A program made the translations under genes and the position numbers. Shown here in pieces: positions 3,485-37,646 of a DNA stretch of 64,000 nt. How positions within the stretch are numbered: the first letter of the stretch is position 1; each line of letters opens with the position of its first letter. The DNA comes from Synechococcus sp. UW140 (lineage in GTDB: Bacteria > Cyanobacteriota > Cyanobacteriia > PCC-6307 > Cyanobiaceae), in contig CALSAP010000015.1 in NCBI GenBank assembly GCA_943372935.1, forward strand, positions 1-64,000, written 5' to 3'. The notes beneath the pieces are model-generated. The model made no database searches and was not told the DNA's origin. It worked only from the letters and a program-made list of their open reading frames with translations.

Positions 3485-3775
3485 ATGGTGCTTGCCAACC
3501 CCTCCGACGCCGCGGCCGCCCCGACCACCGGCAGCGCCCACGCCGGGACCAGCCCCAGCAGCCCGTCGACCGTGGCCGACAGCAGCCGCCTCTACGGCCT
3601 GGAGGGCTGGGGCGATCCCTACTTCACGGCGAATGCCCGGGGCCACGTGATGGTGCAGCCCCGCGGCGACCGGGGCGGGTCCCTCGATCTGGTGGAGCTG
3701 GTGCGGGAGCTGCAAGGCCGCGATCTCACCCTGCCCCCTCAGATGCGCTGCGACGACATCGTCGAAGACCAGCTC
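3485..3775 (+). pseudogene. Duplicated 5' fragment (about 97 codons) of arginine decarboxylase speA
   Basis: The translation (MVLANPSD...SRLYGLEGWGDPYFTANARGHVMVQPRGDRGGSLDLVELVRELQGRDLTLPPQMRCDDIVEDQL) aligns residue by residue with the N-terminus of the intact speA at 14228 (LYGLDRWGDPYFGVGARGNVMVQPRGERGGSLDLVELVRELQGRDLSLPLLIRFDDILEDRL). Nucleotide identity is about 85-90% over roughly 170 bp. Homology ends abruptly at 3775. Confidence 0.75.
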
Positions 3776-3776: not shown

Positions 3777-4471
3777 TCAGAGCAGCAATCCGCGCCGCTG
3801 CAGGGGTTCCAGATCGACGATGCCCCAACCGCCCCCGTCCAGGTCCTCCACGATGCCCTGGCTTCGCAGTCTGCTGAGGGTCCGTGAGGCCGTTTCCCTG
3901 GCCAGACCGGCGAGAAGAGCCAGCTCACGCTGGGGCAGGGGGGGATCGATGCCGTGGCATCGGCGCCCGGGGCGCTGTGGCAGGCCAGATCCAGAAGCAC
4001 GGCCAGCATCCTGGTGGTGGCATCGGCGGTACGCAAGGTGAGTCGGCGGCTGAGGCTCTGCAGACGTTGAACTTCCAGGCGTGCCAGGGCAAGGCACAGC
4101 GCCGGGGACGTGTCCAACAGACGGCGGAACGGCCCGGCACGCAGGATCAGAACCTCGCAGGGGGTGAGCGTCACCACATCGGCGATGCGGCGGCCGGCAT
4201 GCAGCACCGCCATCTCTCCGCAGATGTCGCCGGGCCCGAGGAGCGACAGCACCACCTCGTCGCCGCCCACCCCGAAGCTGCGCACCTTGGCAAGGCCGGC
4301 GCCGATCAGCAACAGACCCTGCGACGCATCCTGCTCCAGCAACAGCAGCTGGTCTGCTGCGAAGGACAGCAGCCGATGCTGCTCGAGCAGCTGTTGACGC
4401 TCCGCCTCAGCCAGGTCGGCGAACAGCACCACACGGTCGAGGTGATCGTCACGCTCAGGACCGGTGGGCAT
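3777..4471 (-). pseudogene. Crp/Fnr-family transcription regulator (cNMP-binding domain plus HTH), frameshifted
   Basis: The cNMP-binding domain (GPGDICGEMAVLHAGRRIADVVTLTPCEVLILRAGPF...) reads in one frame from the ATG at 4469-4471. The DNA-binding HTH (PLPQRELALLAGLARETASRTLSRLRSQGIVEDLDG, ORF 3777..4097) is in another frame. The switch lies around 3950-3990, near a C7 run. Confidence 0.7.
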
Positions 4472-4567
4472 GGAACGCTCCGGCGCTGAATCAGCCAAAT
4501 GGACACCCTGGCTCCCATCCTGAAGGCCATGAGGCCAGGGCGCCCAAAACGATCGGGGGCCTGAGCC

Positions 4568-4583
4568 TGTGAGCGATGTCACA
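4568..4583. promoter_or_regulatory. Perfect CRP-type palindrome TGTGA-gcgatg-TCACA in the divergent crp / tpsA-1 intergenic region
   Basis: Seen directly: tgtgagcgatgtcaca at 4568-4583. It sits about 53 bp upstream of the tpsA-1 ATG (4637) and about 97 bp upstream of the divergent crp start (4471). It matches the established CRP/SyCRP consensus TGTGA-N6-TCACA. Confidence 0.5.
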
Positions 4584-4636
4584 GCAAAGGCGATCCTGCT
4601 TCGCTTCAATGACAAATCTAGGGCGAGCCTGGCTCC

Positions 4637-7600
4637 ATGACGCAGCCGCCACGATCAGCATGGCAGGCATCGACAGCATGCCGGAAAGCCACCCGGATCC
4701 TGGCGCTGGTGCTGGCTCCCCTGCTCGCCGGTCCGGCAGGGGCCCAGGTGTCGAGCGGTGGCCTGGGCACGCTGGTCAACGGCTCGGCGGAAAGCAGTTG
4801 CGGATCCGGCGCCTGTCGCGTGGAGGGCGGCACGGCCGCGGGCGCCAACCTGTTTCATCGCTTCCGGCAGTTCGACACCCGCGGTGGCATCAGCGGCGTC
4901 AGCATTGACAGCCGCGGGCTGGCCAATGTGATCGTGGGGGTGACCAACCCGGCTGGCACCTTCCTCAACCGGCCCCTGAGCCTGACCCAACAGGCCAACC
5001 TCTTCTGGCTCTCCCCTGGAGGCATCTGGGTGGGTCCCGGAGCAGACCTGGTGCGCGTGTCGAACCTGCTGCTCACCACGGCCACGGCGCTGCCGCTGGA
5101 GGGAGGTGCCACCTTCGACGCCCTGCGGACCACGGCGCAGGAAGCCTCCGGCTACCCGGGCGCGCCGTCAACGGGCTGGACCACCCTCACCTCCCTGGCC
5201 AGCCTGGCCGACCTGGGGCTGAAGGAACCCGGCCCGATCGTGCTGGCTGGCGGCCGGCTCAGGGTGGATCGGTCCCTGGTCCTGGATGGCGCCAACGGCG
5301 ACGTGCGGTCGCTGACGGGTGCGGGAAGCCGACTCGAAGCCGGCGAACGTGTGCGTCTCAGCGGTCGGGCCCTGGATCTCGACGCTCTCACAATCTCGGC
5401 GGGTGAGCCCGGGCAGCGGGGGCCGGTGATCCTCCAGACCACCAGCAGCGCAACCGGCGAGGACAGCGGGGCGATCCGCCTCTCGAACAGCCACCTGGAG
5501 GGGAGCAAGGTCATCCTCCGGGCCGGGGCGGTGACGGTGGCCGGCAGCACACTGGCGGCACCCAAGGGTGTGATCCGGCTGGAGAGCACCAACACCCGTG
5601 GGGACAACGGGATCCTGCTCCGCAACGCCCGTCTCGATGTAGGGGTGCACACCCTTGAGGATCTGCGCGCGGACGGATCGGTCACCGTCGAGAAGCAGGA
5701 TGGCGCCATCGTGCGCCAGTCGGCGCCCACACCTCTGATCCATCTGTTCTCCCAGGGAGATGTGCAGGTGGAGGCCGACTCCACCCTCACGGCCAGCCAG
5801 GATCTGGGGCCGATCCGGGCGGCGCTGCTCAAAGAGACGGGGGCGTCCCTGGCCGAGGGCGACGTGAAGCTTGCGGGCACCAGCGGCAACGTGGTGCTCG
5901 ATGCCGCTGGAAGGATCGGCGTGAGCCGCAGCAGGCTGGTGGCCGATGCCAGCGACAACCTGGCCGGCAACATCGCCCTGGTGGCCAGGGGCGGCGAGGG
6001 CAGAGGCGGCATCGGCATCGAGCGCAGCACGCTCTCGGCCAGCGGCGGCGCCGGATCGGGCGATATCCGGCTGAGCAGCAGCGACGGGATCACGATCACC
6101 GGCGCCACGCTGCGCACCGAGAGCAGCCACGGCCCGGGATCCCGTGAGGGCGGCATCGACTGGGCAACCGGCTATCCCTTTGCAGCCGGGGAGATCACTC
6201 TCAGCAATGATTCCCCGACCCGGCCCGTGCTGATCAACGGAAGCCGGCTCGAAGCCACCTACCACACCCGTGAGGGTGGGCTGCCGGTGGGTTTTCCCAA
6301 CCCAGACGATGGGGGCACGACGCAGGTTCCTTTCGTGGACCTTCACGATGATCGCGATCTGATCGAGCTCAGCTTCGACCAGACCCTGGATCCACCCAGG
6401 CTCGCCGGCATCTTTCCCCGCAGCACGGTGGCCATCATCAGCGCGGGTGGCATCTCCATCTCGAACGGGTCGACACTCGATGCCGGCAGCCATCCCGCAG
6501 GCAGACCCGACCTCCTCGAGGCCTTAGGAGGCCGGGTGCTGGTCGTGAACACCGGCACGGGGCTGGGAGCCGGCGCCCTGAGCATCACGGACTCCACGCT
6601 CCTGAGCCGGGTGGACAGCGCCAGCGGCATCCGCTTCCCCAACCCGGAATTCCCGGACTCTTCTGCGCAGGAGAGCCTGCCGATCGGCGAGCCGGGCAGC
6701 GTGCAGCTCTGGAGCGCCGGCTCCCTGCGCCTGAGCAACAGCTCCGTGGATGTGGGCGATGCCGGCCGGATCATCCGTGCCGGTGATGCCATCGGCCCAC
6801 CCCCTTCGCCCGTGCGAGACCCCTATGCGCCCCCCGGGAGCCCGGATCCCCCCACCGCCCAGGCCATCCTGGAGCGGCTCGCCCTTGACAGCCGGGGCGT
6901 GGGGGAGAGCGCGAGACAGACGGTGATCGTGGATCCCGATAACCGGGTGAAGGTGGTGACCACCGATCCTGATGGCGGAATCACGGTGCTGCGCGATCCG
7001 AGCCCTCAGCTCCTCACGACCTTGGTAGGGGAGGCGCGGGCAGCCCTGCTCCCCCGCGGTCTGCTGACACCCCCGCTGATCGTCGCGGCCGGCCCCGGCG
7101 TCGGCCCAGCCGACAGCAGCCGGATCATCACCCCGCTGCGGCGGGAGTCCACCGCGCCGGCTCTCGCCACCAGCAGCATCGTCTCCATGCCCATCTCGGT
7201 CTCAAGCCTGGAAGCGGCGGAGGCCAGCCGAGCTTTCGCGCACGCGGAGGAGCGCTCCCGGCAGGAGACCATCGCTGGCCTGGGATTGGAGGCAGGACAA
7301 GCAACGGCGCCACCCAACAGCGAACAACTGCAACGGCAGCTGCAGCGCATCAGTGCTGCCCTCTCCCAGCCCAGTCAGCACAGGGCGACCTCCTACCGGC
7401 CGGCCATCGTGTTGCTCAACCTCAGCCGACGCGCCGGGGCGGACGCCGCCCTGGATCTTCTCTACCTGCCCCCCAGCGGCCCGATGAAGGGGTGGCGCGT
7501 GGAGATGCCGGAAGCGCAGCTGAGGGGTTGGATCACCACCTTCCAGCGACAGCTCAGTCGCATGGAGCCGTTCGATGGCAGCAGCCAAGGTGCAGGTCGC

Positions 7601-8497
7601 CAGCTCTCCAACCATCTGTTCACCCCCCTGCTGCCGACGTTGCGGCACGACGGCATCACGGCCCTGCTGCTCAGCGTGGACCGGGGGCTGCAGGCCATTC
7701 CCTATGCGGCCCTGCCTCTGGACGAAGGACGCCCCCTGGGTGAGGCCTTCTCCCTCACCCTTACCCCTTCCCTGGGCCTCACGGCACTCGATGCGGCGTC
7801 GAACCCGTCCGCAGGCCGCATGTTGCTGGCCGGTACCAGCCGCTTCCGCAACGGGCTTGCCGATCTGCCCCTGGTCCGTCAGGAACTGGAAACGTTGGCA
7901 GCCGAGCATCCCGCCGACATGCTGCTCGACGACGCCTTCAGCAGCGCGGCCCTGCTGGACCAGGCCGGACGCCGCGAGTACCGGCGCGTGCACCTGGCCA
8001 GCCATGCCGAGTTCCGCCCTGGCCACCCCCCCATCGCCCGGCTCTTCACCGCCACAGGCGACGTGAACATCACCCAGCTGGGACGGCGCCTGCAGAGCGA
8101 TCCGGCCAGGGGGAACGTGGATCTGGTGAGCCTGAGTGCCTGCCGCACCGCCCTGGGTGACGAGAGCAGCGAACTGGGGCTGGTCGGCCTTGCCCTGCGC
8201 ACCGGCAGCCGCAGCGGCCTGGGCACCCTCTGGTTCGTGGACGATGCCGCCAGCGCCGCCTTCTTCGTGCACTTCTACCGCCAGCTGGCCCGGGGCCTGC
8301 CCAAGGACGAGGCTCTCCAGTCCACCCGAAGGGCGTTCCGAAGCGGGGAGATCCGGGTCAGGGGCGACAGCCTGGTGGGCCCCGATGGCAGCCACCTGAT
8401 CCAGGGCCTGTCTCCGGGCGACAGGGCGCGCTTCGCCGAGGGCCTGAGCCATCCCTACTTCTGGGCCGGGGTGGTTCTCTCCGGCTCACCCTGGTAG
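4637..8497 (+). CDS. TpsA-type secreted exoprotein: N-terminal TPS (hemagglutination-activity) domain, beta-helical repeats and a C-terminal CHAT (caspase-like) domain
   Basis: Signal-like N-terminus. TPS motifs: [21 protein letters not shown] and ANLFWLSPGGIWVG (the NPNGI-type motif). The C-terminal CHAT signature has His (VHLASHAEF) and Cys ([13 protein letters not shown]) plus GLVGLALRTGSRSGLGTLWFVDD. Confidence 0.9.
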   Translation: MTQPPRSAWQASTACRKATRILALVLAPLLAGPAGAQVSSGGLGTLVNGSAESSCGSGACRVEGGTAAGANLFHRFRQFDTRGGISGVSIDSRGLANVIVGVTNPAGTFLNRPLSLTQQANLFWLSPGGIWVGPGADLVRVSNLLLTTATALPLEGGATFDALRTTAQEASGYPGAPSTGWTTLTSLASLADLGLKEPGPIVLAGGRLRVDRSLVLDGANGDVRSLTGAGSRLEAGERVRLSGRALDLDALTISAGEPGQRGPVILQTTSSATGEDSGAIRLSNSHLEGSKVILRAGAVTVAGSTLAAPKGVIRLESTNTRGDNGILLRNARLDVGVHTLEDLRADGSVTVEKQDGAIVRQSAPTPLIHLFSQGDVQVEADSTLTASQDLGPIRAALLKETGASLAEGDVKLAGTSGNVVLDAAGRIGVSRSRLVADASDNLAGNIALVARGGEGRGGIGIERSTLSASGGAGSGDIRLSSSDGITITGATLRTESSHGPGSREGGIDWATGYPFAAGEITLSNDSPTRPVLINGSRLEATYHTREGGLPVGFPNPDDGGTTQVPFVDLHDDRDLIELSFDQTLDPPRLAGIFPRSTVAIISAGGISISNGSTLDAGSHPAGRPDLLEALGGRVLVVNTGTGLGAGALSITDSTLLSRVDSASGIRFPNPEFPDSSAQESLPIGEPGSVQLWSAGSLRLSNSSVDVGDAGRIIRAGDAIGPPPSPVRDPYAPPGSPDPPTAQAILERLALDSRGVGESARQTVIVDPDNRVKVVTTDPDGGITVLRDPSPQLLTTLVGEARAALLPRGLLTPPLIVAAGPGVGPADSSRIITPLRRESTAPALATSSIVSMPISVSSLEAAEASRAFAHAEERSRQETIAGLGLEAGQATAPPNSEQLQRQLQRISAALSQPSQHRATSYRPAIVLLNLSRRAGADAALDLLYLPPSGPMKGWRVEMPEAQLRGWITTFQRQLSRMEPFDGSSQGAGRQLSNHLFTPLLPTLRHDGITALLLSVDRGLQAIPYAALPLDEGRPLGEAFSLTLTPSLGLTALDAASNPSAGRMLLAGTSRFRNGLADLPLVRQELETLAAEHPADMLLDDAFSSAALLDQAGRREYRRVHLASHAEFRPGHPPIARLFTATGDVNITQLGRRLQSDPARGNVDLVSLSACRTALGDESSELGLVGLALRTGSRSGLGTLWFVDDAASAAFFVHFYRQLARGLPKDEALQSTRRAFRSGEIRVRGDSLVGPDGSHLIQGLSPGDRARFAEGLSHPYFWAGVVLSGSPW

Positions 8498-8553: not shown

Positions 8554-9786
8554 ATGCCTTCCCCCCGCCGCCGCAGTTCACACCCCCGCACCGCCTGGCT
8601 CATTGGCTGCCTGGCCGTCCTTGTGCTCACCCTTCTGGGGGCCTGGACGGAACCCGCCCAGGCCCAGGACGAGTACTGCGTGAGAACCAATGCGCTCTGG
8701 ACGACACCGTGCACAACATCTGTACGGGTGGACAGCCTGATGGACACCTATTTCTGGTCGCCCAAGAGCCAACCAGCCTCCAACATAAGCATCAGCATTG
8801 GGCCCACTCGAAATGTGAAAGTGTCAAAGATGACACTTCACGGGCCAAGCACGATGCGCCTGAATGCAACAGGCTCATTGCAACGGGAAACACTGATCGG
8901 CAGTCTTGGCAATAACACCCTGACGGGTGCCGGCGGCGGCGACACCTTCGTGATCGGCAACGAAACATCCGTCACCAGGAACCTGGCAAACTGCTCCCCC
9001 ACGAGCATCAACGACTGCGTCTACCGCATCAGCCCTGGCCAGGAAACAGATACCGTGAACATCAGTGGATTTAATGGATCTCCCGATGGGGTCGATATCG
9101 TTTACATCAACAAATGTCTTCAGCTCGTGGCCACTGGGAATCCTGGAAAGGGTGGCGACGCCATCCGTTCAGCCGTCGCTTCCCCCGGGCTCGACAACCA
9201 GGGATTCCCCCAGCAGCCCATTCCCCTCACCGAACCCATGGCGGTGAACTGCCGCATGGGGGGAACTTCCCTGATCCGTTCGTTCACCGGTCAGCTATCC
9301 GATGGCAACGCAGGCCTCTTCGAATCGCTGTGCACAAAGCTAAGGAATATCCTTCGTTTCATCCACTTCAAGCTGACCGGTCGGCTTCCCCTCTATGTCG
9401 GCACACCGCGGATCGTTCAGCCAGCCAGCTTCGGGGGGGCGGAGGGCGATCGCATCGTCATCGAAGCGGAGGGCCTCCGCTTCAATGACGCTCCCCTCAC
9501 CCCTGAGCAGACGGAGGTGTTCGTGCAGGCGCGCAACCGAGACCCCGTCGCCGAGGGCAGGGCACTGATCTACCACCAGGAGATGGGCGTGCTGGCCGCC
9601 TATGGGACCGACCGGGCTGCCTACGGAAGCGAGGCCAATCCCGGCAGCGTGATCGCCCAGCTGGTGCGGCCGGGAGGACGGGCCCTGACGATTGACGCGG
9701 GAATCAGCCCGGACGCGCTCGACTGGGTGAGCCTGGTCCCGCCCGTTCCCCCCGGAGCGGGGGAATCCCCTTCTCCGGCCGGCTGA
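8554..9786 (+). CDS. Hypothetical secreted protein with an RTX-like GGxGxD calcium-binding motif (low-GC insert)
   Basis: Signal peptide (MPSPRRRSSHPRTAWLIGCLAVLVLTLLGAWTEPAQA). One hemolysin-type nonapeptide-like motif (GNNTLTGAGGGDTFVIG). Local GC is clearly lower than its surroundings (roughly 8700-9400). It sits between tpsA-1 and tpsB-1. Confidence 0.6.
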   Translation: MPSPRRRSSHPRTAWLIGCLAVLVLTLLGAWTEPAQAQDEYCVRTNALWTTPCTTSVRVDSLMDTYFWSPKSQPASNISISIGPTRNVKVSKMTLHGPSTMRLNATGSLQRETLIGSLGNNTLTGAGGGDTFVIGNETSVTRNLANCSPTSINDCVYRISPGQETDTVNISGFNGSPDGVDIVYINKCLQLVATGNPGKGGDAIRSAVASPGLDNQGFPQQPIPLTEPMAVNCRMGGTSLIRSFTGQLSDGNAGLFESLCTKLRNILRFIHFKLTGRLPLYVGTPRIVQPASFGGAEGDRIVIEAEGLRFNDAPLTPEQTEVFVQARNRDPVAEGRALIYHQEMGVLAAYGTDRAAYGSEANPGSVIAQLVRPGGRALTIDAGISPDALDWVSLVPPVPPGAGESPSPAG

Positions 9787-11496: not shown

Positions 11497-13452
11497 ATGG
11501 CGCGTCGCCCCATGGCCGAGTCGACACCATGGGCGCTTCAGCCCCCGTTCCTCCGGCATTCGCCCTTCCGGCTTCCCCTGCGGCCATGGCTGCCCTACGC
11601 CTTCGCCGCACTGCTGCTGGTGGCCCTGCAGCGCGGTGGCGTCACCGAAACGGTGAACCTGCTGCTCCATGACATCGCCACCCAGCTGCGGCCGGCTCCC
11701 GATGGCGCCGCCACACCGGTGCGGGTGATCGGCATCAACGAGCCCGACCTCAGAAGGCTGGGCTGGCCGATCGACGACGACCTGCTGAGCGAGGCGATCC
11801 GCCGGCTGGAGCGCGCTGGCGTGCGTGCCATCGGCCTCGATCTGTTTCGAGACATCGGCGTGGGCAACAAGCCGGGTCGGCTACGGGCCCTGGCAGCCAG
11901 TGATCCGCGGCTGGTGTCGGTGTTCAGCGCCGTGGACGGCATCGGTGTGATCCCCGGAACGCCGCCGCAGCGCCGCGCCTACAACGATGTCCTGGTGGAC
12001 CCTGATGGGGTGGTACGCCGTGATCTGGTCCATGTGCGGGGCCAGGGGCCGCACATGGTGGCCCTTCCGATGCGGCTGCTGGAGGTGGCATCGGGCGACG
12101 ATCGGCTGCGCCGCGCCCTGGAGCGGGATCCTGCCGCAGTGCCCCACCTCGGCGAGAACTCCGGCGGGTACAGCCATTTCGATCATGGCGGCGTGCAGCG
12201 GATGCTGGCGTTCCAGCGACCCGGCAGCATCCCCACCTGGTCGCTCAGCCAGCTGCTGGCGGACGAGGTGCCCGAGGCCAGCCTGCGCAACGCGATCGTG
12301 CTGATCGGCAACGCGGCCCCCTCGCTGCGGGATGGTTTCCGGGTGCCCTTCGGAAGGATCGGGCAGGGTCAGGCGCTGCGCATGCCCGGCGTGGAGGTGC
12401 ATGCCCATCGGCTGGCGGCCCTGCTGGCCCTGGAGGCAGGACGGCCGATCGGCCTGCGTGTGGCGCCGGGCTGGCTGAACAGCCTGCTGCTGGTGGCTGG
12501 AATCGGCATCGGGATCGGCCTTGGGGAAGGTGTGAGAACACTGAGTCGCAGCCAGTTGGCCGTGGCGGTCGCAGGGGGGGTGGTGGTGCTGGCCAGCGGG
12601 GTGGCCCTGGCGCAGGGGTTCTGGTTCGATGCCGCCCTGCCGCTGGCCGGACTGGGCGTGATGGCCAGCGCGGCATGGATCCGCAGGGCCGGCGAACAGC
12701 AGCGCCAACGGGAACAGCTCCTGCAGCTGCTCAGGCAGACCACCTCGCCGGCGGTGGCCCGTGAACTGTGGCGACAGCGTGATGTGCTGCTCGAGGGCGG
12801 TCGCTTCCCCGGACGCACGACGGAGGTGACGGTGCTGTTCACCGACATCGAGCGCTTCACCGGCGTCGCCGAACTGCTGGACCCCCATACCCTGCTCAAC
12901 TGGCTGAACAGGGGCATGGCCGCGATGGTCGGCCCCGTGGAGGATGAGGGGGGCCTGGTGAACAAGTTCACCGGCGACGGCCTGCTGGCGGTGTTCGGAG
13001 CGCCGTTGGGCAGGGGACCTGCCGTCGATGCCGCAGCAGCGGTACGGGCCGCCAGTGGCATCCGCCGTGCGGTGATGGCGCTCAATGCAAACCTGGCAGA
13101 AGAAGGATTGCCGGCGATGCAGCTGCGGGTGGGGGTGCACAGCGGCCGTGTCCTGACCGGCTCGGTGGGCACCCCGAACCGGTGGGAATTCGGCGTGGTC
13201 GGCGACACGGTGAACTGCGCCGCCCGCATTGAAGCCCTGGACATGGGCTCCACCATTGCGCCGTTCTGCCGGGTGCTGATCTCAGACTCCACCCGCGCTC
13301 TGGTGGGGGAAACGGTTCAGGGACGCTGGTTCTGCTGGGGCAAAAGGGCGCTGTCGGGACGTTCCTCGGCGGTGGAGATCTGGGAGCTGATGGAGGGGCC
13401 TGAACCCGAGGCGCTGGAGGCTTCGAGCGGCTCGCAACGAACGGGGAGCTGA
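11497..13452 (+). CDS. CHASE2 extracellular sensor / class III adenylate-guanylate cyclase
   Basis: N-terminal periplasmic CHASE2-like region, TM helices, then the cyclase catalytic core (VLFTDIERFTGVAE...NKFTGDGLLAVFGAP...VGVHSGRVLTGSVGT...VGDTVNCAARIE). The ATG follows immediately after the tpsB-1 stop codon (TGAATG). Confidence 0.9.
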   Translation: MARRPMAESTPWALQPPFLRHSPFRLPLRPWLPYAFAALLLVALQRGGVTETVNLLLHDIATQLRPAPDGAATPVRVIGINEPDLRRLGWPIDDDLLSEAIRRLERAGVRAIGLDLFRDIGVGNKPGRLRALAASDPRLVSVFSAVDGIGVIPGTPPQRRAYNDVLVDPDGVVRRDLVHVRGQGPHMVALPMRLLEVASGDDRLRRALERDPAAVPHLGENSGGYSHFDHGGVQRMLAFQRPGSIPTWSLSQLLADEVPEASLRNAIVLIGNAAPSLRDGFRVPFGRIGQGQALRMPGVEVHAHRLAALLALEAGRPIGLRVAPGWLNSLLLVAGIGIGIGLGEGVRTLSRSQLAVAVAGGVVVLASGVALAQGFWFDAALPLAGLGVMASAAWIRRAGEQQRQREQLLQLLRQTTSPAVARELWRQRDVLLEGGRFPGRTTEVTVLFTDIERFTGVAELLDPHTLLNWLNRGMAAMVGPVEDEGGLVNKFTGDGLLAVFGAPLGRGPAVDAAAAVRAASGIRRAVMALNANLAEEGLPAMQLRVGVHSGRVLTGSVGTPNRWEFGVVGDTVNCAARIEALDMGSTIAPFCRVLISDSTRALVGETVQGRWFCWGKRALSGRSSAVEIWELMEGPEPEALEASSGSQRTGS

Positions 13453-14036
13453 GCCGGCAGACCCTCGGCCAGGTGCTGGAGGGAGAAGGCCCCCAGCAAT
13501 GGAGCGGTGGCCACGGACGTGCCGCAGGCCCTGGCCAGAATCCTCAACTGGTCCGTCACCTGTCGATCCTCCCCCCTCGGCGCGGTCGAGGGTGTCGGCG
13601 GCTCGAGCCAGGTTCGGGCCGGTGGCGCAGTGGCGCTCTCCATGTCGGCGCCGCAGAGGGGAAAGCTCTCCCACAGCAGTCCACGGGACACGGCAGGAAT
13701 GGTCAGCAGCCTCACCCCCGTGGGCCTGGCGGCGAGAGTCCACTCACCGATGAGGCCCAGCTTCACCACCAGTGGAGTGGGGCGGGGAGCGGTGCCCTCC
13801 AACAGGGCGATGGTGCTGCCGGGACCGGGTGCGAAGCGGCCGCTGCTCGGCACGAGGTGAGCCAGACGGCGTGACTCGCAAGGGTCGCGGCTGCCACCGG
13901 ACTCCCTGTTCATGGGAAAGGATTTCGTGCGATCCTTGGCGACGGCTGCTGGGATGGACAGGCCAGCAGAGAGATTCGCCAGCAGTCCGACCGCCAGCGC
14001 CAGGTAGATCGTTCGGGAAAGAGCGGCTGAGTCCAT
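13317..14036 (-). CDS. Small secreted protein, DUF928-like paralog family member (copy 1, degenerate)
   Basis: Paralogous to the ORFs at 28435..29220 and 36997..37653 (shared RLAHLVPSS, W.S..C and a C-terminal LPVRC). The family motif FPGRRVGGGTRGEC is degraded here to FPMNRESGGSRDPCE. A 3' extension past the family's normal stop overlaps the convergent cyclase by 136 nt. Confidence 0.5.
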   Translation of the reverse strand: MDSAALSRTIYLALAVGLLANLSAGLSIPAAVAKDRTKSFPMNRESGGSRDPCESRRLAHLVPSSGRFAPGPGSTIALLEGTAPRPTPLVVKLGLIGEWTLAARPTGVRLLTIPAVSRGLLWESFPLCGADMESATAPPARTWLEPPTPSTAPRGEDRQVTDQLRILARACGTSVATAPLLGAFSLQHLAEGLPAQLPVRCEPLEASSASGSGPSISSQISTAEERPDSALLPQQNQRP

Positions 14037-14111
14037 CGCAGCCGGTGCTAGGTGAAGAGACCATTATGCAGTTCTGATAGCCTCATTGGCCCCCAGCCGG
14101 TCACGGCATGT

Positions 14112-14127
14112 AGTGATCCTGATCACA
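14112..14127. promoter_or_regulatory. CRP-like palindrome AGTGA-tcctga-TCACA in the speA / DUF928-like divergent intergenic region
   Basis: Seen directly at 14112-14127; 9 of 10 half-site matches to TGTGA-N6-TCACA. It sits about 100 bp upstream of the speA ATG and about 75 bp from the divergent DUF928-like start. Confidence 0.35.
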
Positions 14128-16266: not shown

Positions 16267-18147
16267 CTACCTGGAGGCCTGATCCGCGAGGGCGACGGTG
16301 AAGATCTCCACCTCCCCGAGACTCTTCACCGCCTGGGGTCCCAGGGAGCGGGCCGAGAGGCCGGGGTCGGCCGCGATCAGGCTGGCGGTCTGGGCGTCAC
16401 ACACCACCGCCGCGTCCACATTCCGCGTGGCCGATTCGAGCCGGGCCGACAGGTTCACCGTGTCGCCGATCACGGTGAACTCCATCCGCTGTGGGCTGCC
16501 GATCTGGCCCACCATCACCTGGCCACTGGCCAGGCCGATGCCGTTGTCGAGGCTGGCGATGTCCCGCCGCGCCCAGTCCTCGTTGAGGCCGGCCAGGGCC
16601 GCCCGCATGGCCAGGGCGCAGCGCACCGCCTGGCGGGCCTCCTCGGCCACTCCCCGGCTCACCGGTGAGCCGAACACCGCCATCACCGCATCGCCGATGA
16701 ATTTGTCAACGGTGCCGCCATGGGCCATCACCACCTCCACCATGGCGCCCAGATACTCGTTGAGCTGGCGCACGTGCAGCTCGCTCTGGCCTTCACCGCT
16801 GCGCTGCTTGGTGAGCACCGTGAAGCCCTTGATGTCGGTCATCAGCACGGTCACTTCCAGCAGGCGGCCGCGCAGGATGCCCTGGGCCGATTCCGGGTCG
16901 GAGAGGATCTCCGCCACCACCCCGGGGGCCACGTAGCGCTCGAAGGTGCGGCGCAGGCGCCGCCGCTCCTGCCCCTCCCGCAGGTAGGCATCCCCGCCGT
17001 AGAGCAGGCCCAGCAGCACCAGGCCCGAGGAGGGCGCCAACAGGGGCAGCCAGCGGTTGGCCTGCTGCAGCGCCACGGCGACGACGGCCCCCTGGAGGAC
17101 CAGCACCAGCACCACCAGGGCGAGGCGCCAGCGCAGGTCGGTCCAGTGGCGGGCCGCCGCCAGCACGAGCAGCAGCGGCAGCAGGGCCAGCAGGGCCCGG
17201 CCCGGCGCGCTGCGGGGCCAGGGCTGCAGCCCATCCCCCTGCAGCGAGTTGGCGGTGGCGGTGGCCAGCACCTCCAGTCCCGACAGGCGGCCGAAGGGGG
17301 TGGGGTAGCCGTCGGTCCCCTGGGCGACCACCGGGCCAAGCAGCACCAGGGCCCCCTTCACGTCCTGGCGCAGGGGATGGGTCTGCCAGCGCGCGGGGTC
17401 GAGCACCTCCCAGGCCGGCAGGCGCTGGAAGCTGCCCTCCGGGCCATAGAAATTGAGCGCGCTGGCCCGGTCGTCCTGGTGGCTCCGGTGGCCCCCCAGC
17501 CGCAGCAGGGTGGAGGAGAGGGCGCTGTGGCCCTCGGCGCCCCGGGCGGGAAGCACGCCGCTGGCGTAGGCCTCGGGGTGGCGGCTCGGCTCGCTGGAGG
17601 TGCCGGCGAGGATGTTGGTGAGCCCGAGGGAGCCGGTGCCGCCGATGGCCGCCAGGAAGCGCTCCGGCCGCACGAAGGTGAGGGCTCCCGCCCCCTGGGT
17701 GTCGTCGGATTCGAGCATCTCGGCCGCCAGGGCGACCCGGCCGGGGTAGCGCCGCAGCCGCAGCTCCAGGGCATCGTCATCGGCCGGCCCCTTGCCGCTG
17801 GGCCCCTCGAAGACCACATTCACGGCCACGGCCCTGGCACCGGCCTGCAGCAGCTTCTCCGCCACCATGCCGTAGGTGGCGCGGGGCCAGGGCAGGCTGC
17901 CGACGCCCCTGGCCCATTCCGGGATCCGGCCTTCCTCCTCGAACCAGTCCCCCTGCTGCAGGGTGGCGTCATCGACCGTGACCAGCACCACCTTCTCTGG
18001 CGGCCGGCGCGGGCCCCGCAGCAGCATCAACTGCTGCTCCACCCCCCGCTCCCAGACACGCATCCGGGGTCCCGGCCAGCCGGAACTGACCCCCACCCAG
18101 GCCAGCACGGCCACCACGAGGACCTTGAAGGTGCGGCGTCGCGCCAT
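16267..18147 (-). CDS. CHASE2 sensor / class III nucleotidyl cyclase (second copy)
   Basis: CHASE2-like N-terminal half, TM block, cyclase core (VLMTDIKGFTVL...DKFIGDAVMAVFGSP...IGLASGQVMVGQIGS...IGDTVNLSARLE). Convergent with speA. Confidence 0.9.
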   Translation of the reverse strand: MARRRTFKVLVVAVLAWVGVSSGWPGPRMRVWERGVEQQLMLLRGPRRPPEKVVLVTVDDATLQQGDWFEEEGRIPEWARGVGSLPWPRATYGMVAEKLLQAGARAVAVNVVFEGPSGKGPADDDALELRLRRYPGRVALAAEMLESDDTQGAGALTFVRPERFLAAIGGTGSLGLTNILAGTSSEPSRHPEAYASGVLPARGAEGHSALSSTLLRLGGHRSHQDDRASALNFYGPEGSFQRLPAWEVLDPARWQTHPLRQDVKGALVLLGPVVAQGTDGYPTPFGRLSGLEVLATATANSLQGDGLQPWPRSAPGRALLALLPLLLVLAAARHWTDLRWRLALVVLVLVLQGAVVAVALQQANRWLPLLAPSSGLVLLGLLYGGDAYLREGQERRRLRRTFERYVAPGVVAEILSDPESAQGILRGRLLEVTVLMTDIKGFTVLTKQRSGEGQSELHVRQLNEYLGAMVEVVMAHGGTVDKFIGDAVMAVFGSPVSRGVAEEARQAVRCALAMRAALAGLNEDWARRDIASLDNGIGLASGQVMVGQIGSPQRMEFTVIGDTVNLSARLESATRNVDAAVVCDAQTASLIAADPGLSARSLGPQAVKSLGEVEIFTVALADQASR

Positions 18148-18558: not shown

Positions 18559-19968
18559 TCATTGCCGAAGAAGATCTTCGATCAATGCGTTTCTCCGCTG
18601 AAGAATGTCTACGGCCGCCTGGCCATTCCCCACAATTTGCCTGAGTTGCCGAGCGCCGTCACTCAGGAGAGAGAAAGCAGGCCTGACCCACCCCTTTCCC
18701 GGAACAAGGGACACAATATCAATGACAGCGTTCACGGGATCTCCGCCTATATACTTAGAATAGGCCGAGAAAAGCTTTTCGCCAGCAACAATTGGTTTTA
18801 AGGCTGTTTGAAGGACTCTCAAGCTATTGCTTTGCGTGACAATCCCGAAGACATTCAAGGCTATATCTACATGAGAGGGCCTTAGAAACCGAAAACGATC
18901 AGCAATGACACCCCTAACCGTGCCTATGTCTGTAGCCTGATAGGCTTGAAAGCTGGACACTCTATCATTGAGGAAACCAATATTCGCAGCATCGGCAGTA
19001 TAGGATATCCTCCGCCCAAAGAAGTTGGGATGCTCAAAGAGATCAATGCGTGCCCCCCGCGGAAGATCAATTGACGAGTAATCGTCATTAAACCTGACTT
19101 GTCGTCGGCTTCCAAGTGTATCACTATGCGCAAGTCCCTGGAAGTTCGAATGCTGATAAAGGATAACTTCGTCGCTTCGTTGGCGGCGAACTCGCAGACT
19201 GCTTATGCTATCGTTCAGATATGAGGTTCTCCAGTTGGGGTCGCTCCAGTCAGCGCCAATACTGGCCTGGGAGTGGGAAACGACAGTGCTTCTTCCTTGG
19301 AAATTGGCATGCTCGAAGAACTCTACAACCAAATCACTACCGGCAGGGATGCGTATCGAAGTCGCGATGTCATTAAAATCGCCGCCAATGAATGAATAGT
19401 TGCCAATTCCGAATGTCTTTGAGCGGCCAGAATACGCCGCATGCTCAAAGAGAGTTACAGAAGCATTGAATTCGACTTGGACAGGCGAGCCATCAATCAA
19501 GAGAATTCCGGAATCATCCTCGCTGAACGCAGAGGCCGAAAGATCCGACATGCTTTTCGACATCACCAAAGACGCAAAAATCTCGCCTTCATCTCCAAGG
19601 CTATCAACAAGGTTGATTCTTGCGTCAATTGCGTGGCCAATCTCCTCGGCAAGGACATCCGCAATCTGCCATGTGGCAGAGCTATCAACGAAGTTGCCAT
19701 CAATGTAGATTGTATTGTCAGCTCTCGCGTAGGCAGCCGTTTCAAGTCCCGTAATATTATCAACCCTGACGACATTCAAGTCCAGGGCGTCTACCAAGCT
19801 TTCGTTTGCACTTATGGACGGCCCAACAAGCTCTTGAATCTTTGCGTAAGAGCCAACTCCAAAAACACTGTCGAATGAACTGATAGGCGTGGCTAGAAGA
19901 GCTGAATGAATCGATGCCTCTGCAAAGGCAATGCCATCAGAGAGATTACAAAAAGCAGGGGGAGCGCC
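18559..19968 (-). pseudogene. Low-GC gene for a protein with four beta/gamma-crystallin-type Greek-key repeats, 5' end interrupted by an ISAs1-family insertion
   Basis: There are four repeats of the type (L/V)(F/Y)EHxNFxG(R)S ... NDxxSSxxV (e.g. VEFFEHANFQGRST...LNDSISSLRV; VILYQHSNFQGLA...FNDDYSSIDL; IDLFEHPNFFGRRIS...LNDRVSSFQA). GC content is far below its surroundings. The first 45 codons of the annotated ORF (to 20103) are IS sequence; the native 5' end continues at 21236..21315 on the other side of the IS. Confidence 0.7.
19958..19968. repeat. 11-bp target-site duplication (left copy) gggggagcgcc
   Basis: The identical 11-mer recurs at 21236-21246, immediately outside the inverted repeats. 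Confidence 0.7.
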
Positions 19969-25047: not shown

Positions 25048-26529
25048 TTGGCCCTGCTGCAGATCTGGATCAGCGCCCTGGCCGCCACGGTCGGGCTGCT
25101 GGTGCTGGCCCGTCTCTGCCGCCACAGGGCCCTTCCGGCTGTGCCACTGAGGCTGCCGCTGCTGGCCATCGCCGCCTGGGCGCTGCTGAGTTCCCTTCCG
25201 CTGCAGGGGTTGCCGCCAGCCTACCGGGTGTGGGTGCTGCTCACCGACGACCTGCTGCTCACCTACGCCGCCATCCTCATCGCCCTCTGGGTCACGCTGC
25301 AGGTGCCCGCCCACCTGGGGCTGTGGCGCCCGCCGCCCCAGCTGTTGATGCAGCTGCTCACCCTCGGCAGCGCCGCCCTGGCCACGGTGGTGCTGGTGCG
25401 GCAGTCGGCGCGGCTGGATCTGGTGGGGCTGGTGACCACCTCTGCCGTGCTCACCGCCGTGATCGGCCTGGCCGCCCAGGAGTCCCTCAAGGACCTGTTC
25501 GCGGGCCTGGAGCTGCAGCTGGGGGACGACTTCACCGAGGGGGACTTCCTGGAGCTGGACCAGGGGGTGCGCGGGGTGGTGGTGCGGGTGAGCTGGCGGG
25601 ACACCATGCTCCGCAACATGGACGGCCAGCTGATGGTGGTCCCCAACAGCCTCGTCACCGCGCGGGTGTTGCGCAACCTGGGCCGCTCCGGGGCCGTCAG
25701 CAACCGGTTCAGCGTCGGCCTCGACTACGACCTGCCGCCCGCCCAGGCCAGGGCCCTGCTGGAGAAGGTGGTGCTGCAGCATCCCGGGGTGTTGCGGGAA
25801 CCGAGCCCCCGCATCCGGGTCCAGGAGTTCCAGGACAGTGCCATCGCCTACGAGCTGCAGGTGTGGCAGCGGGAGCTGGGGGATGGGGCCATCGGCGACC
25901 TGCGCAGCGACCTGCTTGAGCAGATCTGGTACGCCCTGGCCCGCGAAGGCCAGAGCATCCCCTACCCGGTGCGGGAGCTGCTGCCGCGCCGCTCCCGGGA
26001 CCGGCCCCAGCTCCCGGCAAGGCCCTCCCCCCAGCTGTGCTGCCAGACCCTGGCCAGCGTGGGCATCTTCACCGACCTGAGCGGCGAGCAGCTGGAGACC
26101 CTGGTGGAAGGCAGCCATCAGGTGGCCTACGGGCCCGGCGAGGCGGTGGTGCAGGAGGGGGCCGAGGGGCACTCGATGTTCCACGTGCTGCGGGGGACCG
26201 TGGAGATCCTCAAGGAGATCGAGCCAGGCCACACCGTGGCCGTGCGCGAGCTGGGGCCCGGCGAGGTCTTCGGCGAGATGACCCTCTTTCTCGATGCCCC
26301 CCGCAGCGCCACGGTGCGGGCCACCGAGGAGTGCCTGCTGCTGCAGGTGGACCGGGACAGCATCAAGGGCCTGCTGGAGGAGAATCCGGACCTGCTGGAG
26401 CGCTTCGCCGCCATGGTGCAGGAGCGGCAGGCGGAGCTGCAAAGTCTGGATCGCGAACAGCACACGGAGCGGTCCAATGCACTGCTGGTCACGATGAAAC
26501 GGCTCTTCTTCGCCTTCACGGGCACCTGA
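25048..26529 (+). CDS. MscS-family mechanosensitive channel with a C-terminal cyclic-nucleotide-binding domain
   Basis: Three or more N-terminal TM helices. MscS signature region (ESLKDLFAGLELQLGDDFTEGDFLELD...GVVVRVSWRDTMLRNMDGQLMVVPNSLV). C-terminal cNMP-binding fold (GEVFGEMTLFLDAPRSATVRATEECLLL). Confidence 0.85.
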   Translation: MALLQIWISALAATVGLLVLARLCRHRALPAVPLRLPLLAIAAWALLSSLPLQGLPPAYRVWVLLTDDLLLTYAAILIALWVTLQVPAHLGLWRPPPQLLMQLLTLGSAALATVVLVRQSARLDLVGLVTTSAVLTAVIGLAAQESLKDLFAGLELQLGDDFTEGDFLELDQGVRGVVVRVSWRDTMLRNMDGQLMVVPNSLVTARVLRNLGRSGAVSNRFSVGLDYDLPPAQARALLEKVVLQHPGVLREPSPRIRVQEFQDSAIAYELQVWQRELGDGAIGDLRSDLLEQIWYALAREGQSIPYPVRELLPRRSRDRPQLPARPSPQLCCQTLASVGIFTDLSGEQLETLVEGSHQVAYGPGEAVVQEGAEGHSMFHVLRGTVEILKEIEPGHTVAVRELGPGEVFGEMTLFLDAPRSATVRATEECLLLQVDRDSIKGLLEENPDLLERFAAMVQERQAELQSLDREQHTERSNALLVTMKRLFFAFTGT

Positions 26530-28481
26530 TGGACAGCAGAACCCCTCGCGGATCCAATCGGGCGGCCTGGCTGGCACGGCTGGGGGACCTCCATCTGGGG
26601 GATGGCCTGCGCTCGCTCGTGCCCTACGCGGCGGCCGGACTGCTGTTGCTGACCCTGCAGCGCAGCCCCATCAACGAAACCCTCAACTTGCTCCTCTACG
26701 ACCTGATCACCAACTTGCGCCCAGCTCCGCTCGGTACGGACAAGCCGATCACGATCATCGGCATCGACGAATCCGACCTGGCCACCTATGGGTTCCCGAT
26801 CGACGACAAGGTGCTGTGCGCAGCCATCGACCGGCTGAACGCCGAGGGTGCCGTGGCGATCGGCCTCGACATCTACCGCGACCAGGGCGTCGGCCCCGAC
26901 CAGGCCTGTCTGCGGGAGCGCTTCCGCCGCAATCCCCGCCTCGTTTCGATCTTCAACGTGGCCGAAGCCACCGGCCCGGTGCCGGGCACGCCGGCCGATC
27001 GCCGCGGTTTCAACGATCTGGTGCTGGATGCCGATGGGGTGATCCGCCGGGATCTGGTGCATGTGGCCGGCCAGGACGAGGCCACCGTGTCGCTGCCCCT
27101 GCGCCTGCTGGAGGTGGGCAAGGGTCAGCGGAGCCTGCGGCAACGGCTCGAGAAGGGCACCGAACCAGGCCCATGGTTGGAGCCGGCTTCAGGGGGCTAC
27201 GACCAGGTGGATGCCGCCGGGATGCAGCAGATGCTGTCCTTCCACCAGCTCGGCAGCTTCCACCTCTGGAATCTCCAGGATGTCCTCGGCCGCCGGCCGA
27301 TCCCCAGGGACCAGATCCGTGGCCACATCGTGCTGATCGGCAGCACCGCCCCGACCCTGCGCGACCTTTTCCCCGTGCCCCAGACCCGCTCCGCCCTGGG
27401 GGCGAAGCAGTTGCTGGTGCCAGGCGTCGAGATCCATGCCCATCGCCTGGCCGCCTTGATGGATCGCTATGTGGCCGGCGACCCGCGACGCATGCGGACC
27501 CTGCCCGGCTGGGTGGAGCGCCTCGCCGAGGTGGTGGCCGTGGTGCTGGGGATCGTGCTGGGGGAAGCTTTCCGTCTGCTGCGCCGCAGCGTGATCGTGG
27601 TGGTGCTGGTGGCAGCGCTGATGGTGGGAGGCGCTGTGCTGCTGCTCTACAACTTCGTCTGGGTCGGGTTAAGCCTGCCGCTGACCGGACTGATCGCGAT
27701 GGCCGGTGCGGCCTGGGTGCGCCGGGGCGCCTCCAGCCAGAAACAACGCCAGCAGATCGAGCGGCTGCTCGGCCAGACCACCTCCCCGGCCGTCGCCCGC
27801 CAGCTCTGGAACCAACGCGATGGGCTGCTCAGCGACGGCCGCTTCGAAGGGCGTCAGTTGCCGGTCACCGTGCTGATGTCCGACACCTGCTCGTTCACGG
27901 GCGTGTCGGAACGCCTCACCCCCGGGGAGCTGCTCGACTGGCTGAACCGAGGCATGGCTCTGTTCGTGCCGGCGATCACGCGCCGGGGCGGCATGGTCAA
28001 CAAGTTCACCGGCGACGGGCTGCTGGCCGTCTTCGGCGCCCCCCTGAGCAGCGGCGAGCAGGCCGACGCCAAGGCCGCCATCGATGCCGCCCTGGCAATT
28101 CAGCGGGCCGTGGTGAGCCTCAACGAGGAACTGGAGCAGGAGGGGCTGCCAGCCATGGGCCTGCGCATCGGCGTCCACTCCGGCGCCGTTCTGGCGGGAT
28201 CGATGGGCAGCAGCGAACGGCTCGAATACGCCGTGATCGGCGATGCCGTGAACTGCGCCGCACGGCTGGAGAGCATCGACAAGGAGCGTCAGTCCAATCT
28301 CTGCCGGGTGCTGGTGTCCTCCAGCACGGTGGACCTGCTGCCCAAAGGTCTGCCGCTGGAGTGGCTCGACTGGGGCGCGTTGAGCGTCAAGGGGCGCACC
28401 GAACCCCTGCGCATCTGGGAGCTGCGGGGTGGCCTCAGGCGGGACAGCGCACGGGAATCCGCTCCGGCCACTGGGCCGTGA
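26529..28481 (+). CDS. CHASE2 sensor / class III nucleotidyl cyclase (third copy)
   Basis: Close paralog of 11497..13452 and of the same length (651 aa), with the core VLMSDTCSFTGVSE...NKFTGDGLLAVFGAP...IGVHSGAVLAGSMGS...IGDAVNCAARLE. The ATG at 26529-26531 overlaps the mscS-cNMP stop codon (TGATG). The ORF track's upstream extension to 26037 is rejected. Confidence 0.9.
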   Translation: MDSRTPRGSNRAAWLARLGDLHLGDGLRSLVPYAAAGLLLLTLQRSPINETLNLLLYDLITNLRPAPLGTDKPITIIGIDESDLATYGFPIDDKVLCAAIDRLNAEGAVAIGLDIYRDQGVGPDQACLRERFRRNPRLVSIFNVAEATGPVPGTPADRRGFNDLVLDADGVIRRDLVHVAGQDEATVSLPLRLLEVGKGQRSLRQRLEKGTEPGPWLEPASGGYDQVDAAGMQQMLSFHQLGSFHLWNLQDVLGRRPIPRDQIRGHIVLIGSTAPTLRDLFPVPQTRSALGAKQLLVPGVEIHAHRLAALMDRYVAGDPRRMRTLPGWVERLAEVVAVVLGIVLGEAFRLLRRSVIVVVLVAALMVGGAVLLLYNFVWVGLSLPLTGLIAMAGAAWVRRGASSQKQRQQIERLLGQTTSPAVARQLWNQRDGLLSDGRFEGRQLPVTVLMSDTCSFTGVSERLTPGELLDWLNRGMALFVPAITRRGGMVNKFTGDGLLAVFGAPLSSGEQADAKAAIDAALAIQRAVVSLNEELEQEGLPAMGLRIGVHSGAVLAGSMGSSERLEYAVIGDAVNCAARLESIDKERQSNLCRVLVSSSTVDLLPKGLPLEWLDWGALSVKGRTEPLRIWELRGGLRRDSARESAPATGP

Positions 28482-36996: not shown

Positions 36997-37641
36997 TCAG
37001 GAGGGGCAGCGAACTGGTAGCTGATCGGGCCAGCCATCCTTCAGCAGATCAGCCAGACCGAAGGCGGCACCCAGCTCAGCCCGACTCACTGTGCCGCCGC
37101 AGCGACCCTTGAGGCCTTCTAGCCGTTCGCGGATCCCAGCATCCTGAGGCGTGACGTCCTTCACCAGCAGGCTGATGGCAGGGGGTGAGGACGTCGACAC
37201 CACCTGCAGCTGATCGTCGGTGGAAGCTGCGCCCCCGCCGCAGAGATATCTCGATTGCCACAGGGTGGGGCCTGACAGGGGTGTGCCGCTCAGAAGAACC
37301 AGGGCAGGGGGGCCTGGAGGCAGCAGGCGCTGGGCCGGTGGTGCCGATACGCCCATCAGGCTGAACTGGACGAGCAGGGGATGCAACACACTGGCGGGTC
37401 CTTCCAGAAGGCCCAACAAAGGCGCGTCGCTGGGGGCGAACACACTTGACTCCGGCACGAGATGCACGATCAAGCGGGAAGAGCATTCGCCGCGGGTGGC
37501 GCCAGCCACCCGCCTGCCGGGGAATGTGGTGCGGGGGCTGGCCTGGACGGCGCTGCCAGCCATCAGCCAATCCACCTTGGCAAGCCCGAGGTTGAAAAGA
37601 CAGAGAAGCGACAGAGAGCGCAGCGAGAACGAATAGCGCAT
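36997..37641 (-). CDS. Small secreted DUF928-like paralog (copy 3)
   Basis: Signal peptide (MRYSFSLRSLSLLCLFNLGLA), TFPGRRVAGATRGECSSRLIVHLVPESSVFAP, WQSRYLC, ending ...LPVRCPS. Confidence 0.6.
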   Translation of the reverse strand: MRYSFSLRSLSLLCLFNLGLAKVDWLMAGSAVQASPRTTFPGRRVAGATRGECSSRLIVHLVPESSVFAPSDAPLLGLLEGPASVLHPLLVQFSLMGVSAPPAQRLLPPGPPALVLLSGTPLSGPTLWQSRYLCGGGAASTDDQLQVVSTSSPPAISLLVKDVTPQDAGIRERLEGLKGRCGGTVSRAELGAAFGLADLLKDGWPDQLPVRCPS

Positions 37642-37646
37642 CGATG

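Follow-up and report, generated by a model that had tools for sequence, protein, structure and literature searches.

Gene content of the window

The window, meaning the whole 64-kb stretch of DNA that was analysed, comes from a Synechococcus/Cyanobium-type picocyanobacterium of the freshwater type. Its GC content is 65–73% in most 2-kb intervals (range 54–73%), and it is approximately 93% coding and 7% intergenic. A frameshifted crp-family gene and an operon headed by a large secreted protein, TpsA1, diverge from a short intergenic region that holds a perfect CRP-type palindrome, and a second, near-perfect palindrome is found beyond the end of the operon. The features on which the analysis is built are given below by position.

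3777..4471, minus strand: crp-family gene with a −1 frameshift in a poly-C tract; as assembled, the open reading frame continues to 3353
4568..4583, no strand: box 1, CRP-type operator TGTGAGCGATGTCACA, that is TGTGA-GCGATG-TCACA, matching 10 of 10 specified bases
4605..4610, plus strand: predicted −10 element TTCAAT, 21 nt past box 1, at a conserved offset
4637..8497, plus strand: tpsA1, secreted protein with an N-terminal TPS-like region and a C-terminal CHAT (caspase-like protease) domain (CHAT, 3e-47)
8554..9786, plus strand: unk410, a 410-aa gene, second in the operon and syntenic in the related loci L001, L072, L073, L075 and L087
9793..11496, plus strand: tpsB1, ShlB/FhaC-type outer-membrane transporter (ShlB, 3e-10, above the cut-off)
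11497..13452, plus strand: cyc1, CHASE2 class III cyclase (PF00211, 2e-17) that closes the operon
13317..14036, minus strand: 239-aa gene, convergent with cyc1, predicted target of box 2
14085..14090, minus strand: GCCAAT, a weak −10-like hexamer without conservation in orthologues, 21 nt from box 2 in the direction of the 239-aa gene
14112..14127, no strand: box 2, CRP-type operator AGTGATCCTGATCACA, one mismatch, 9 of 10 bases
16267..18147, minus strand: cyc2, CHASE2 class III cyclase (Pfam)
25048–26529: MscS channel with a cNMP domain
26037..28481, plus strand: cyc3, CHASE2 class III cyclase (Pfam); the coordinates are those of the longest open reading frame
46304–48199: glutaminase (glsA) with STAS and cNMP domains
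48289–50292: GAF-HD protein

The tpsA1 product is 1286 aa in length, and its TPS match in Pfam scores 24.1 bits, under the curated cut-off of 33.5. The POTRA_2 match of tpsB1 is weak. No significant Pfam match was found for the 410-aa unk410, nor could a Pfam family be assigned to the 239-aa, 218-aa and 367-aa genes. The start of cyc1 abuts the stop of tpsB1. At their 3′ ends, cyc1 (plus strand) and the convergent 239-aa gene (minus strand) overlap by 136 bp (13317–13452), and the same overlap is seen in locus L089.

Following cyc1, the Pfam map consists of the 239-aa gene (minus strand), speA, cyc2 (minus strand), an insertion element, a FecR-like gene, SIMPL, the MscS channel with its cNMP domain, cyc3, two CHAT/ShlB modules, alaS, the glutaminase with its cNMP domain and the GAF-HD protein. 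The preliminary description had spoken of three adjacent cyclases, and Pfam identified all three as CHASE2 class III cyclase genes; the true start of cyc3 is probably near 26.5 kb. The MscS-cNMP, glsA-cNMP and GAF-HD genes are further cyclic-nucleotide effectors clustered in the window. None of them has a Crp box; upstream of these genes and of the other cyclases, no site was better than three mismatches.

An IS-type transposase, split into two open reading frames (DDE_Tnp_1_assoc and DDE_Tnp_1), is located at 19931–21216 in a low-GC stretch (54% at 18–20 kb), beside a beta/gamma-crystallin-like gene. Transposase and low GC together suggest a recent insertion or rearrangement in the island.

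A perfect CRP-type palindrome upstream of tpsA1

A perfect 16-bp box had been reported at 4568–4583, 53 bp from tpsA, and both statements were borne out by a position check. The intergenic region that contains box 1 is 165 bp in length; the palindrome is separated by 53 bp from the tpsA1 ATG at 4637 and by 96 bp from the ATG (4471) of the divergent crp-like gene. Box 1 is the only match to TGTGA-N6-TCACA with no mismatch in the 64-kb window, compared to 0.02 expected from dinucleotide-preserving shuffles (n = 100), 2 of which contained at least one perfect box. Matches with at most one mismatch numbered three, against 0.99 expected, a count reached in 9 of the 100 shuffles. Those with at most two mismatches numbered 14 (15.7 expected), thus the relaxed classes alone show no enrichment.

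When a weight matrix made from 23 orthologous sites was scored over all positions of the window, box 1 at 4568 ranked first (20.3 bits) and box 2 at 14112 ranked second (18.1 bits), both of them intergenic. The third match (47758, one mismatch) falls inside the glutaminase coding region. A search for known RNA families in 4300–4800 produced chance-level matches only. A scan with the sigma-70 consensus identified no canonical promoter at 4400–4700, as would be expected of a promoter that depends on an activator.

Conservation of the palindrome in related loci

For comparison, a set of 80 picocyanobacterial loci encoding relatives of the window's crp-like regulator was assembled and enlarged by several loci from an exact protein look-up, and the window proteins were mapped onto all of them. 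The divergent crp/tpsA layout was found in 25 other loci, every one of which has an intergenic box (16 with no mismatch and 9 with one), and the 6-bp spacer and the flanks vary among these 25 boxes. Crp identity is 57–64% in 24 of the syntenic loci, where the gene is intact or merely frameshifted; the remaining locus, L087, has remnants only. The tpsA-x-tpsB-cyc1 gene order is present in 8 loci.

The preliminary description had raised chance frequency as an outcome that would speak against the motif. In 1.087 Mb of non-redundant related loci, 41 perfect boxes were counted where 0.44 (base composition) or 1.1 (first-order Markov) would be expected, an over-representation of approximately 40-fold. 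Twenty-nine control palindromes with permuted half-sites occurred 0–6 times each in the same 1.087 Mb. From 39 distinct perfect sites, an extended consensus of c-TGTGA-[T/G/C]N4[A/C/G]-TCACA-g was obtained in which A never follows TGTGA, and the c and g flanks of box 1 agree with it. Neither the 39 distinct perfect sites nor the 23 orthologous ones show any variation at the G and A of TGTGA. A chance palindrome is excluded by the conservation in 25 loci and the approximately 40-fold enrichment. These comparisons support box 1 as a genuine, evolutionarily conserved Crp-type operator, positioned to control the tpsA-CHAT operon.

Promoter geometry on the tpsA side

Twenty-six intergenic regions, the window included, were anchored on the box and offsets of 14–31 nt were scanned for a T..AT hexamer. 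On the tpsA side, 13 of the 26 loci have such a hexamer at an offset of exactly 21 (TTCAAT in the window; the forms across loci are TTCAAT, TGCAAT, TCTAAT, TGTAAT, TCCAAT and TTTGAT), and two more loci have TATAAG and TAAAAA at the same offset. Among the remaining offsets, 14–25 and 27–31 yielded no T..AT hexamer in the 26 loci and offset 26 yielded one. On the crp side, none of the 26 loci has a T..AT hexamer at offset 21, and no −10 element at a fixed offset was found there. In 11 of the 26 syntenic loci the +21 hexamer is missing and the region downstream is arranged differently.

The centre of the box is 29.5 bp ahead of the hexamer; with the hexamer assigned to −12 to −7, the centre falls at −41.5. 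Judged by position, the offset of 21 matches class II (−41.5) geometry; the transcription start of tpsA1 would then be near 4617, with a leader of approximately 20 nt. TTCAAT is without the usual A at position 2. In characterised cyanobacterial CRP promoters, the −10 element is found approximately 22 bp downstream of the CRP site (PMC2633013), and the +21 spacing of the window agrees with this arrangement.

A second conserved element, GTCAC(AGG), is present 17 nt past the box in L016, L024, L032, L035, L040, L089 and L092, in promoters without the +21 hexamer. It might be an extra half-site.

Box 2 and the 239-aa gene

The second near-perfect box described earlier at 14112–14127 is present, with one mismatch. 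Read toward the 239-aa gene, its sequence is TGTGATCAGGATCACT and it is located 75 bp ahead of the ATG of that gene. Orthologues of the 239-aa gene in L089–L093 (52–57% identical) have a box with 0–1 mismatch 66–77 bp ahead of the ATG, and their upstream neighbour is not speA. The upstream regions of speA in 19 other loci contain no comparable site, the best having 2–4 mismatches. Since the orthologues keep the box with other neighbours and the speA regions are without the site, box 2 appears to belong to the 239-aa gene, which is its probable target. The initial proposal that box 2 co-regulates speA and a DUF928-like copy was thus upheld for the 239-aa gene by the L089–L093 boxes and abandoned for speA (0 of 19).

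The DUF928-like label could not be verified, as Pfam gave no match at E ≤ 10 for the 239-aa gene or for its paralogue at 36997–37653 on the minus strand (35% identity, 4e-22). Marine Synechococcus homologues of this paralogue have boxes with 0–1 mismatch upstream. A further sequence, GGTGATCTGCTTCAGA, is conserved at a constant distance of approximately 148 bp upstream of speA in the marine-type loci L021, L057, L061 and L074; it was ruled out as a CRP box as it has TCAGA instead of TCACA.

Boxes at other genes

In loci without the +21 hexamer, a perfect box is found approximately 100 nt upstream of a 77–89-aa open reading frame with a double-glycine leader (..LSDDELQAVSGG..); downstream of this frame come a gene for an MbnB/TglH/ChrH RiPP enzyme (1.5e-34) and, next, the TPS-CHAT gene. 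The layout of box and double-glycine open reading frame is seen in L016 (6080–7905) and also in L019, L024, L032, L035, L040, L070 and L079. By its gene content, the combination of box, double-glycine open reading frame and MbnB/TglH/ChrH enzyme looks like a Crp-controlled RiPP cluster. Other boxes are located ahead of RTX proteins (2e-29), DUF3386 proteins and signal-peptide proteins, and exported products predominate in the predicted regulon. A perfect box between a SIMPL gene and an RTX gene (HemolysinCabind, 2e-29) was observed in L005 (8439–8454) and L015 (3223); the SIMPL gene of the window (24254–24958) has no neighbouring RTX gene or box.

Enrichment of the motif upstream of other TPS/CHAT/cyclase genes, a point raised in the preliminary description, was not seen in the regions compared: the two other TPS/CHAT modules of the window, like nine intergenic regions between marine tpsB and tpsA genes, have no Crp box with fewer than three mismatches.

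The broken crp-family gene

The crp-family gene had been described as frameshifted, and a closer comparison with homologues and with a second assembly confirmed this. The frame switches at a C7 run at 3938–3944 (G7 on the plus strand) where homologues need C8: 20 homologues read I-P-P-L-P-Q-R-E-L at the switch point, and the intact orthologues in L011 and L018 have ATC CCC CCC CTC. As assembled, the open reading frame is 372 codons in length and the DNA-binding domain is lost. The second frame encodes ...IDPPLPQRELALLAGLARETASRTLSRLR...*, and the helix-turn-helix with RETASR is in this shifted frame. Over 20,720 bp, the G7 run included, a Logan assembly of run ERR9580620 and the window agree at every position (100% identity), and the gene caller of that assembly likewise gave a 372-aa product. 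Since the second assembly is identical, the frameshift is not the artefact of one assembler; the same reads may underlie both.

A −1 deletion in the poly-C tract has also arisen, independently, in L067 (8528–8540), which is the sister locus of the C8-bearing L018. The two deletions suggest either that the tract is a hotspot where repeated slippage inactivates the TPS-linked crp, or that the homopolymer was misassembled.

The gene contains the cNMP-binding domain PF00027 (2e-16), and its homologues carry PF13545 and PF00325. RETASR aligns with RETVGR of E. coli CRP, the segment that holds the three base-contacting residues (R-E-x-x-x-R). The best solved relatives of the regulator are T. thermophilus Crp, GlxR, M. 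tuberculosis CRP and E. coli CAP; the score of NtcA is approximately ten orders of magnitude worse. Repair of the run to C8 gives a Crp protein of 231 aa with 0 deviations in the 48 columns where 77 homologues show conservation of 95% or more, from which it follows that the inactivation would be very recent. In the repaired protein, Arg95 is present and is followed by Ile96, at which position 81 of 82 homologues have Ser or Thr. Ile96 aligns with Ser83 of E. coli CRP, part of the cAMP phosphate-binding cassette (R82-S83). For both the RETASR and the Ser83 alignments, we used what we take to be the E. coli CRP sequence. As a member of the CRP subfamily, the gene thus has the cNMP domain and the R-E-x-x-x-R helix and is without an intact frame and an Arg-Ser/Thr cassette. 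Given the frameshift and the Ile at the Ser83 position, the cognate Crp of the cassette is probably not made in this organism.

Just past the true crp stop, 197 bp at 3575–3770 (plus strand) are 82% identical to 14327–14522 (plus strand), the 5′ part of speA. A rearrangement probably left this fragment behind. Directly after crp, L017 and L023 have a convergent speA.

Closest relative and an intact paralogue

The closest relative of the window is L087, from a Synechococcus UW140-like MAG. The two are identical at the DNA level, free of gaps, by 93.5% for tpsA1, 93.5% for tpsB1 and 92.2% for cyc1. The crp gene of L087 is 81–82% identical and has two internal deletions and further indels. Its box, TGTGACCATTAGCACA, has one mismatch; TTCAAT and the tpsA ATG are conserved. 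Homology between the window and L087 stops right after crp.

The MAG that contains L087 also encodes an intact Crp paralogue with GLARETASR (L053), and this family is widespread in the clade. The members found for this core paralogue cluster all come from samples other than that of the window, and no copy could be assigned to the genome of the window itself. None of 17 core paralogue loci has a box within 350 bp upstream, the best sites having 3–4 mismatches.

A proposed class II promoter for the tpsA1 operon

Considering the operator, its placement and the gene order, a Crp-dependent class II promoter with box 1 as its operator is likely, though short of assured, to drive tpsA1(CHAT)-unk410-tpsB1-cyc1. 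According to this model, a cAMP-loaded dimer of a CRP-subfamily regulator (helix RETxSR) would bind the palindrome, which would be centred approximately 41.5 bp upstream of the start and substitute for the −35 element, and the dimer would recruit RNA polymerase to the weak −10 element TTCAAT.

The choice of cAMP as the messenger comes from the cyclases. The ATP-specifying residues Lys and Asp are present in cyc1 and cyc3, therefore the predicted messenger is cAMP. In cyc1, NKF aligns to DEF of Cya2 and GDTVN is present; where cyc1 has the Lys, the guanylyl cyclase Cya2 (2w01) has its specificity Glu, and Lys is also found in 6fht, an engineered adenylyl-cyclase form. These residues predict that cyc1 is an adenylyl cyclase. 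Possible further sources of cAMP are cyc2 and cyc3. A cyclic-nucleotide link of the operon is reasonable, since its final gene encodes a CHASE2 cyclase bearing the Lys/Asp pair and the regulator has a CRP recognition helix. The induction of cyc1 would raise cAMP and, because the last gene is a CHASE2 adenylyl cyclase, the operon would reinforce its own expression. Such a cAMP feedback loop is plausible on the basis of gene content. The proposal that the TPS-CHAT operon is under cNMP-Crp control is thus retained with respect to the operator, its placement and the cyclase link, and given up with respect to autoregulation of crp, as discussed below.

Box 2 would drive the convergent 239-aa gene, therefore a cassette of approximately 9.6 kb would be bracketed by two Crp sites. 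The layout with two operators is common to a Tobar12-like contig (L002 and L089, which are the same record). With the crp of the cassette knocked out, the promoter would be served by another Crp paralogue with the same helix or would now be poorly inducible. For the organism at hand, we infer binding, activation as opposed to repression, cAMP as the ligand, the feedback and the binder.

Alternative explanations

An unlikely alternative to the class II promoter in current use is that box 1 is a relic: an ancestral Crp promoter element, now unused as the regulator of the cassette is dead, whose match would still be perfect only for want of time since the inactivation. The state of the regulator fits this explanation, with the −1 frameshift seen by a second assembler as well and Ile96 in place of the Ser/Thr of 81 of 82 homologues. 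So does L087, where crp has two deletions and has fallen to 81–82% identity, as opposed to 92–93.5% for the operon genes, and where the box has a mismatch; a dead crp with an imperfect box is also compatible with a site starting to decay and counts against the class II model. The broken copy in L067 goes with a one-mismatch box, as against a perfect box in the intact sister locus L018, and fading of CRP sites after the loss of crp has been proposed (PMC2633013). However, box 1 is still perfect, and the −10 element and the ATG have been kept between two lineages that are both without a working cassette crp. All four operon genes are intact and conserved, which suggests that they are still expressed and selected, and an intact, conserved operon argues for continued use of the site. 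The core Crp paralogue with the same GLARETASR helix, present in the genome of the relative (L053) and widespread, could take the place of the lost regulator, and the repaired Crp with its 0 of 48 deviations leaves any inactivation very recent.

It is far less probable that the box is mainly an autoregulatory operator of the divergent crp, whether repressing or activating, with control of tpsA secondary. The box does lie 96 bp ahead of the crp ATG in a shared intergenic region of 165 bp, its distance to crp is constant at approximately 80 bp in a second group of loci, and crp is autoregulated in E. coli (cited in PMC2633013). Over the loci as a whole, however, the distance between box and crp ranges from 29 to 193 bp with no −10-like hexamer at a fixed offset on the crp side, and in L064, L070 and L079 the box comes after crp and ahead of the target genes. 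The 17 core-type paralogue loci, with no site within 350 bp upstream (best 3–4 mismatches), also speak against it. Autoregulation of crp, which had been part of the preliminary description, was therefore set aside.

The sites of NtcA follow the consensus TGTA-N8-TACA, and its promoters have them at −41.5. That the box is bound by another Crp/Fnr-family factor such as NtcA (GTA-N8-TAC), or is a chance palindrome, is scarcely credible: TGTG-N8-CACA is one base per half-site from the NtcA consensus, the −41.5 layout is common to both and the excess inside the window alone is modest (p ~0.02), but no GTA/TAC variants exist among the 39 distinct perfect and 23 orthologous sites with their invariant G and A, the regulator linked to the box carries the CRP-type RE...R helix and is only a weak match to NtcA, and conservation in 25 loci with approximately 40-fold enrichment speaks against chance. 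As an NtcA box the site was ruled out, since GTG-N8-CAC is found in box 1 and in all orthologous sites.

Significance

Returning to the class II promoter model, its conserved operator with a fixed promoter geometry provides a directly testable handle. To our knowledge, cAMP signalling in picocyanobacteria is almost unexplored experimentally, and we know of no role or regulation for TPS-secreted CHAT (caspase-like) proteins. The operon of the secreted CHAT protease, the 239-aa family, RiPP precursors and RTX proteins are predicted cAMP-Crp responders, and positive feedback is predicted via the sensor cyclase that the operon encodes. The locus may also serve as a natural case in which a regulator decays and its operator and target operon persist.

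A wider reading is put forward tentatively, as a possibility that is open to considerable doubt. Freshwater and brackish picocyanobacteria may share a conserved, self-amplifying cAMP-Crp cassette composed of crp, the operator, a TPS-secreted CHAT protease, its transporter and a CHASE2 adenylyl cyclase, closed by a second operator on a gene for a small exported protein; the same regulator would also control double-glycine RiPP precursors and RTX proteins. If true, the cassette would be a switch driven by extracellular cues for secreted factors of cell-cell interaction or cell death, and the poly-C tract in crp would be a recurrent slippage hotspot by which the programme is turned off in some lineages.

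Comparison with known systems

As a kind of element, box 1 is already known, since both CRP boxes and CRP orthologues were predicted for cyanobacteria, marine picocyanobacteria among them, in 2009 (PMC2633013). Xu and Su (2009) predicted CRP sites in the marine strains CC9311, CC9605, MIT9313 and MIT9303, in the form of perfect palindromes upstream of lineage-specific genes (PMC2633013). The sites of the present study belong to the same clade and have the same motif. The supplementary tables of Xu and Su (2009) contain no hemagglutinin, CHAT, hemolysin activation, surface antigen or adenylate cyclase entries, and a literature search found no paper that ties Crp to TPS-CHAT or that brings CHASE2, CHAT and DUF928 together. 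What is new is that crp, the operator, the TPS-CHAT operon and the CHASE2 cyclase stay linked across loci, that the +21 spacing is fixed, that box 2 is assigned to genes of the 239-aa family and that the poly-C frameshift in crp is recurrent.

The predicted promoter resembles the class II CRP promoters of E. coli (−41.5, e.g. galP1) in having the same 16-bp TGTGA-N6-TCACA palindrome, a site in place of the −35 element at a fixed spacing from the −10 element, and a regulator with R-E-x-x-x-R. It differs in that the host is a picocyanobacterium of 68–70% GC, the −10 element is of the form TNNAAT without the usual A at position 2, and the predicted targets are secretion and signalling genes instead of catabolic operons. 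With NtcA promoters (GTA-N8-TAC), the likeness is a Crp/Fnr-family activator at −41.5 and a −10 element approximately 22 bp downstream; unlike them, every orthologous site here has the GTG/CAC half-site and the linked regulator is CRP-like.

Among cyanobacteria, SyCrp1 of Synechocystis PCC 6803 and AnCrpA of Anabaena PCC 7120 bind TGTGAN6TCACA with cAMP (PMC2633013). Their promoters have a −10 element (TAN3T) approximately 22 bp downstream, and their targets are cell-surface structures, e.g. pilus genes (PMC2633013). In contrast, the predicted target in the window is a TPS-CHAT-cyclase operon, and the regulator is that of a picocyanobacterial subgroup; its gene is found beside the predicted target and is broken in the window.
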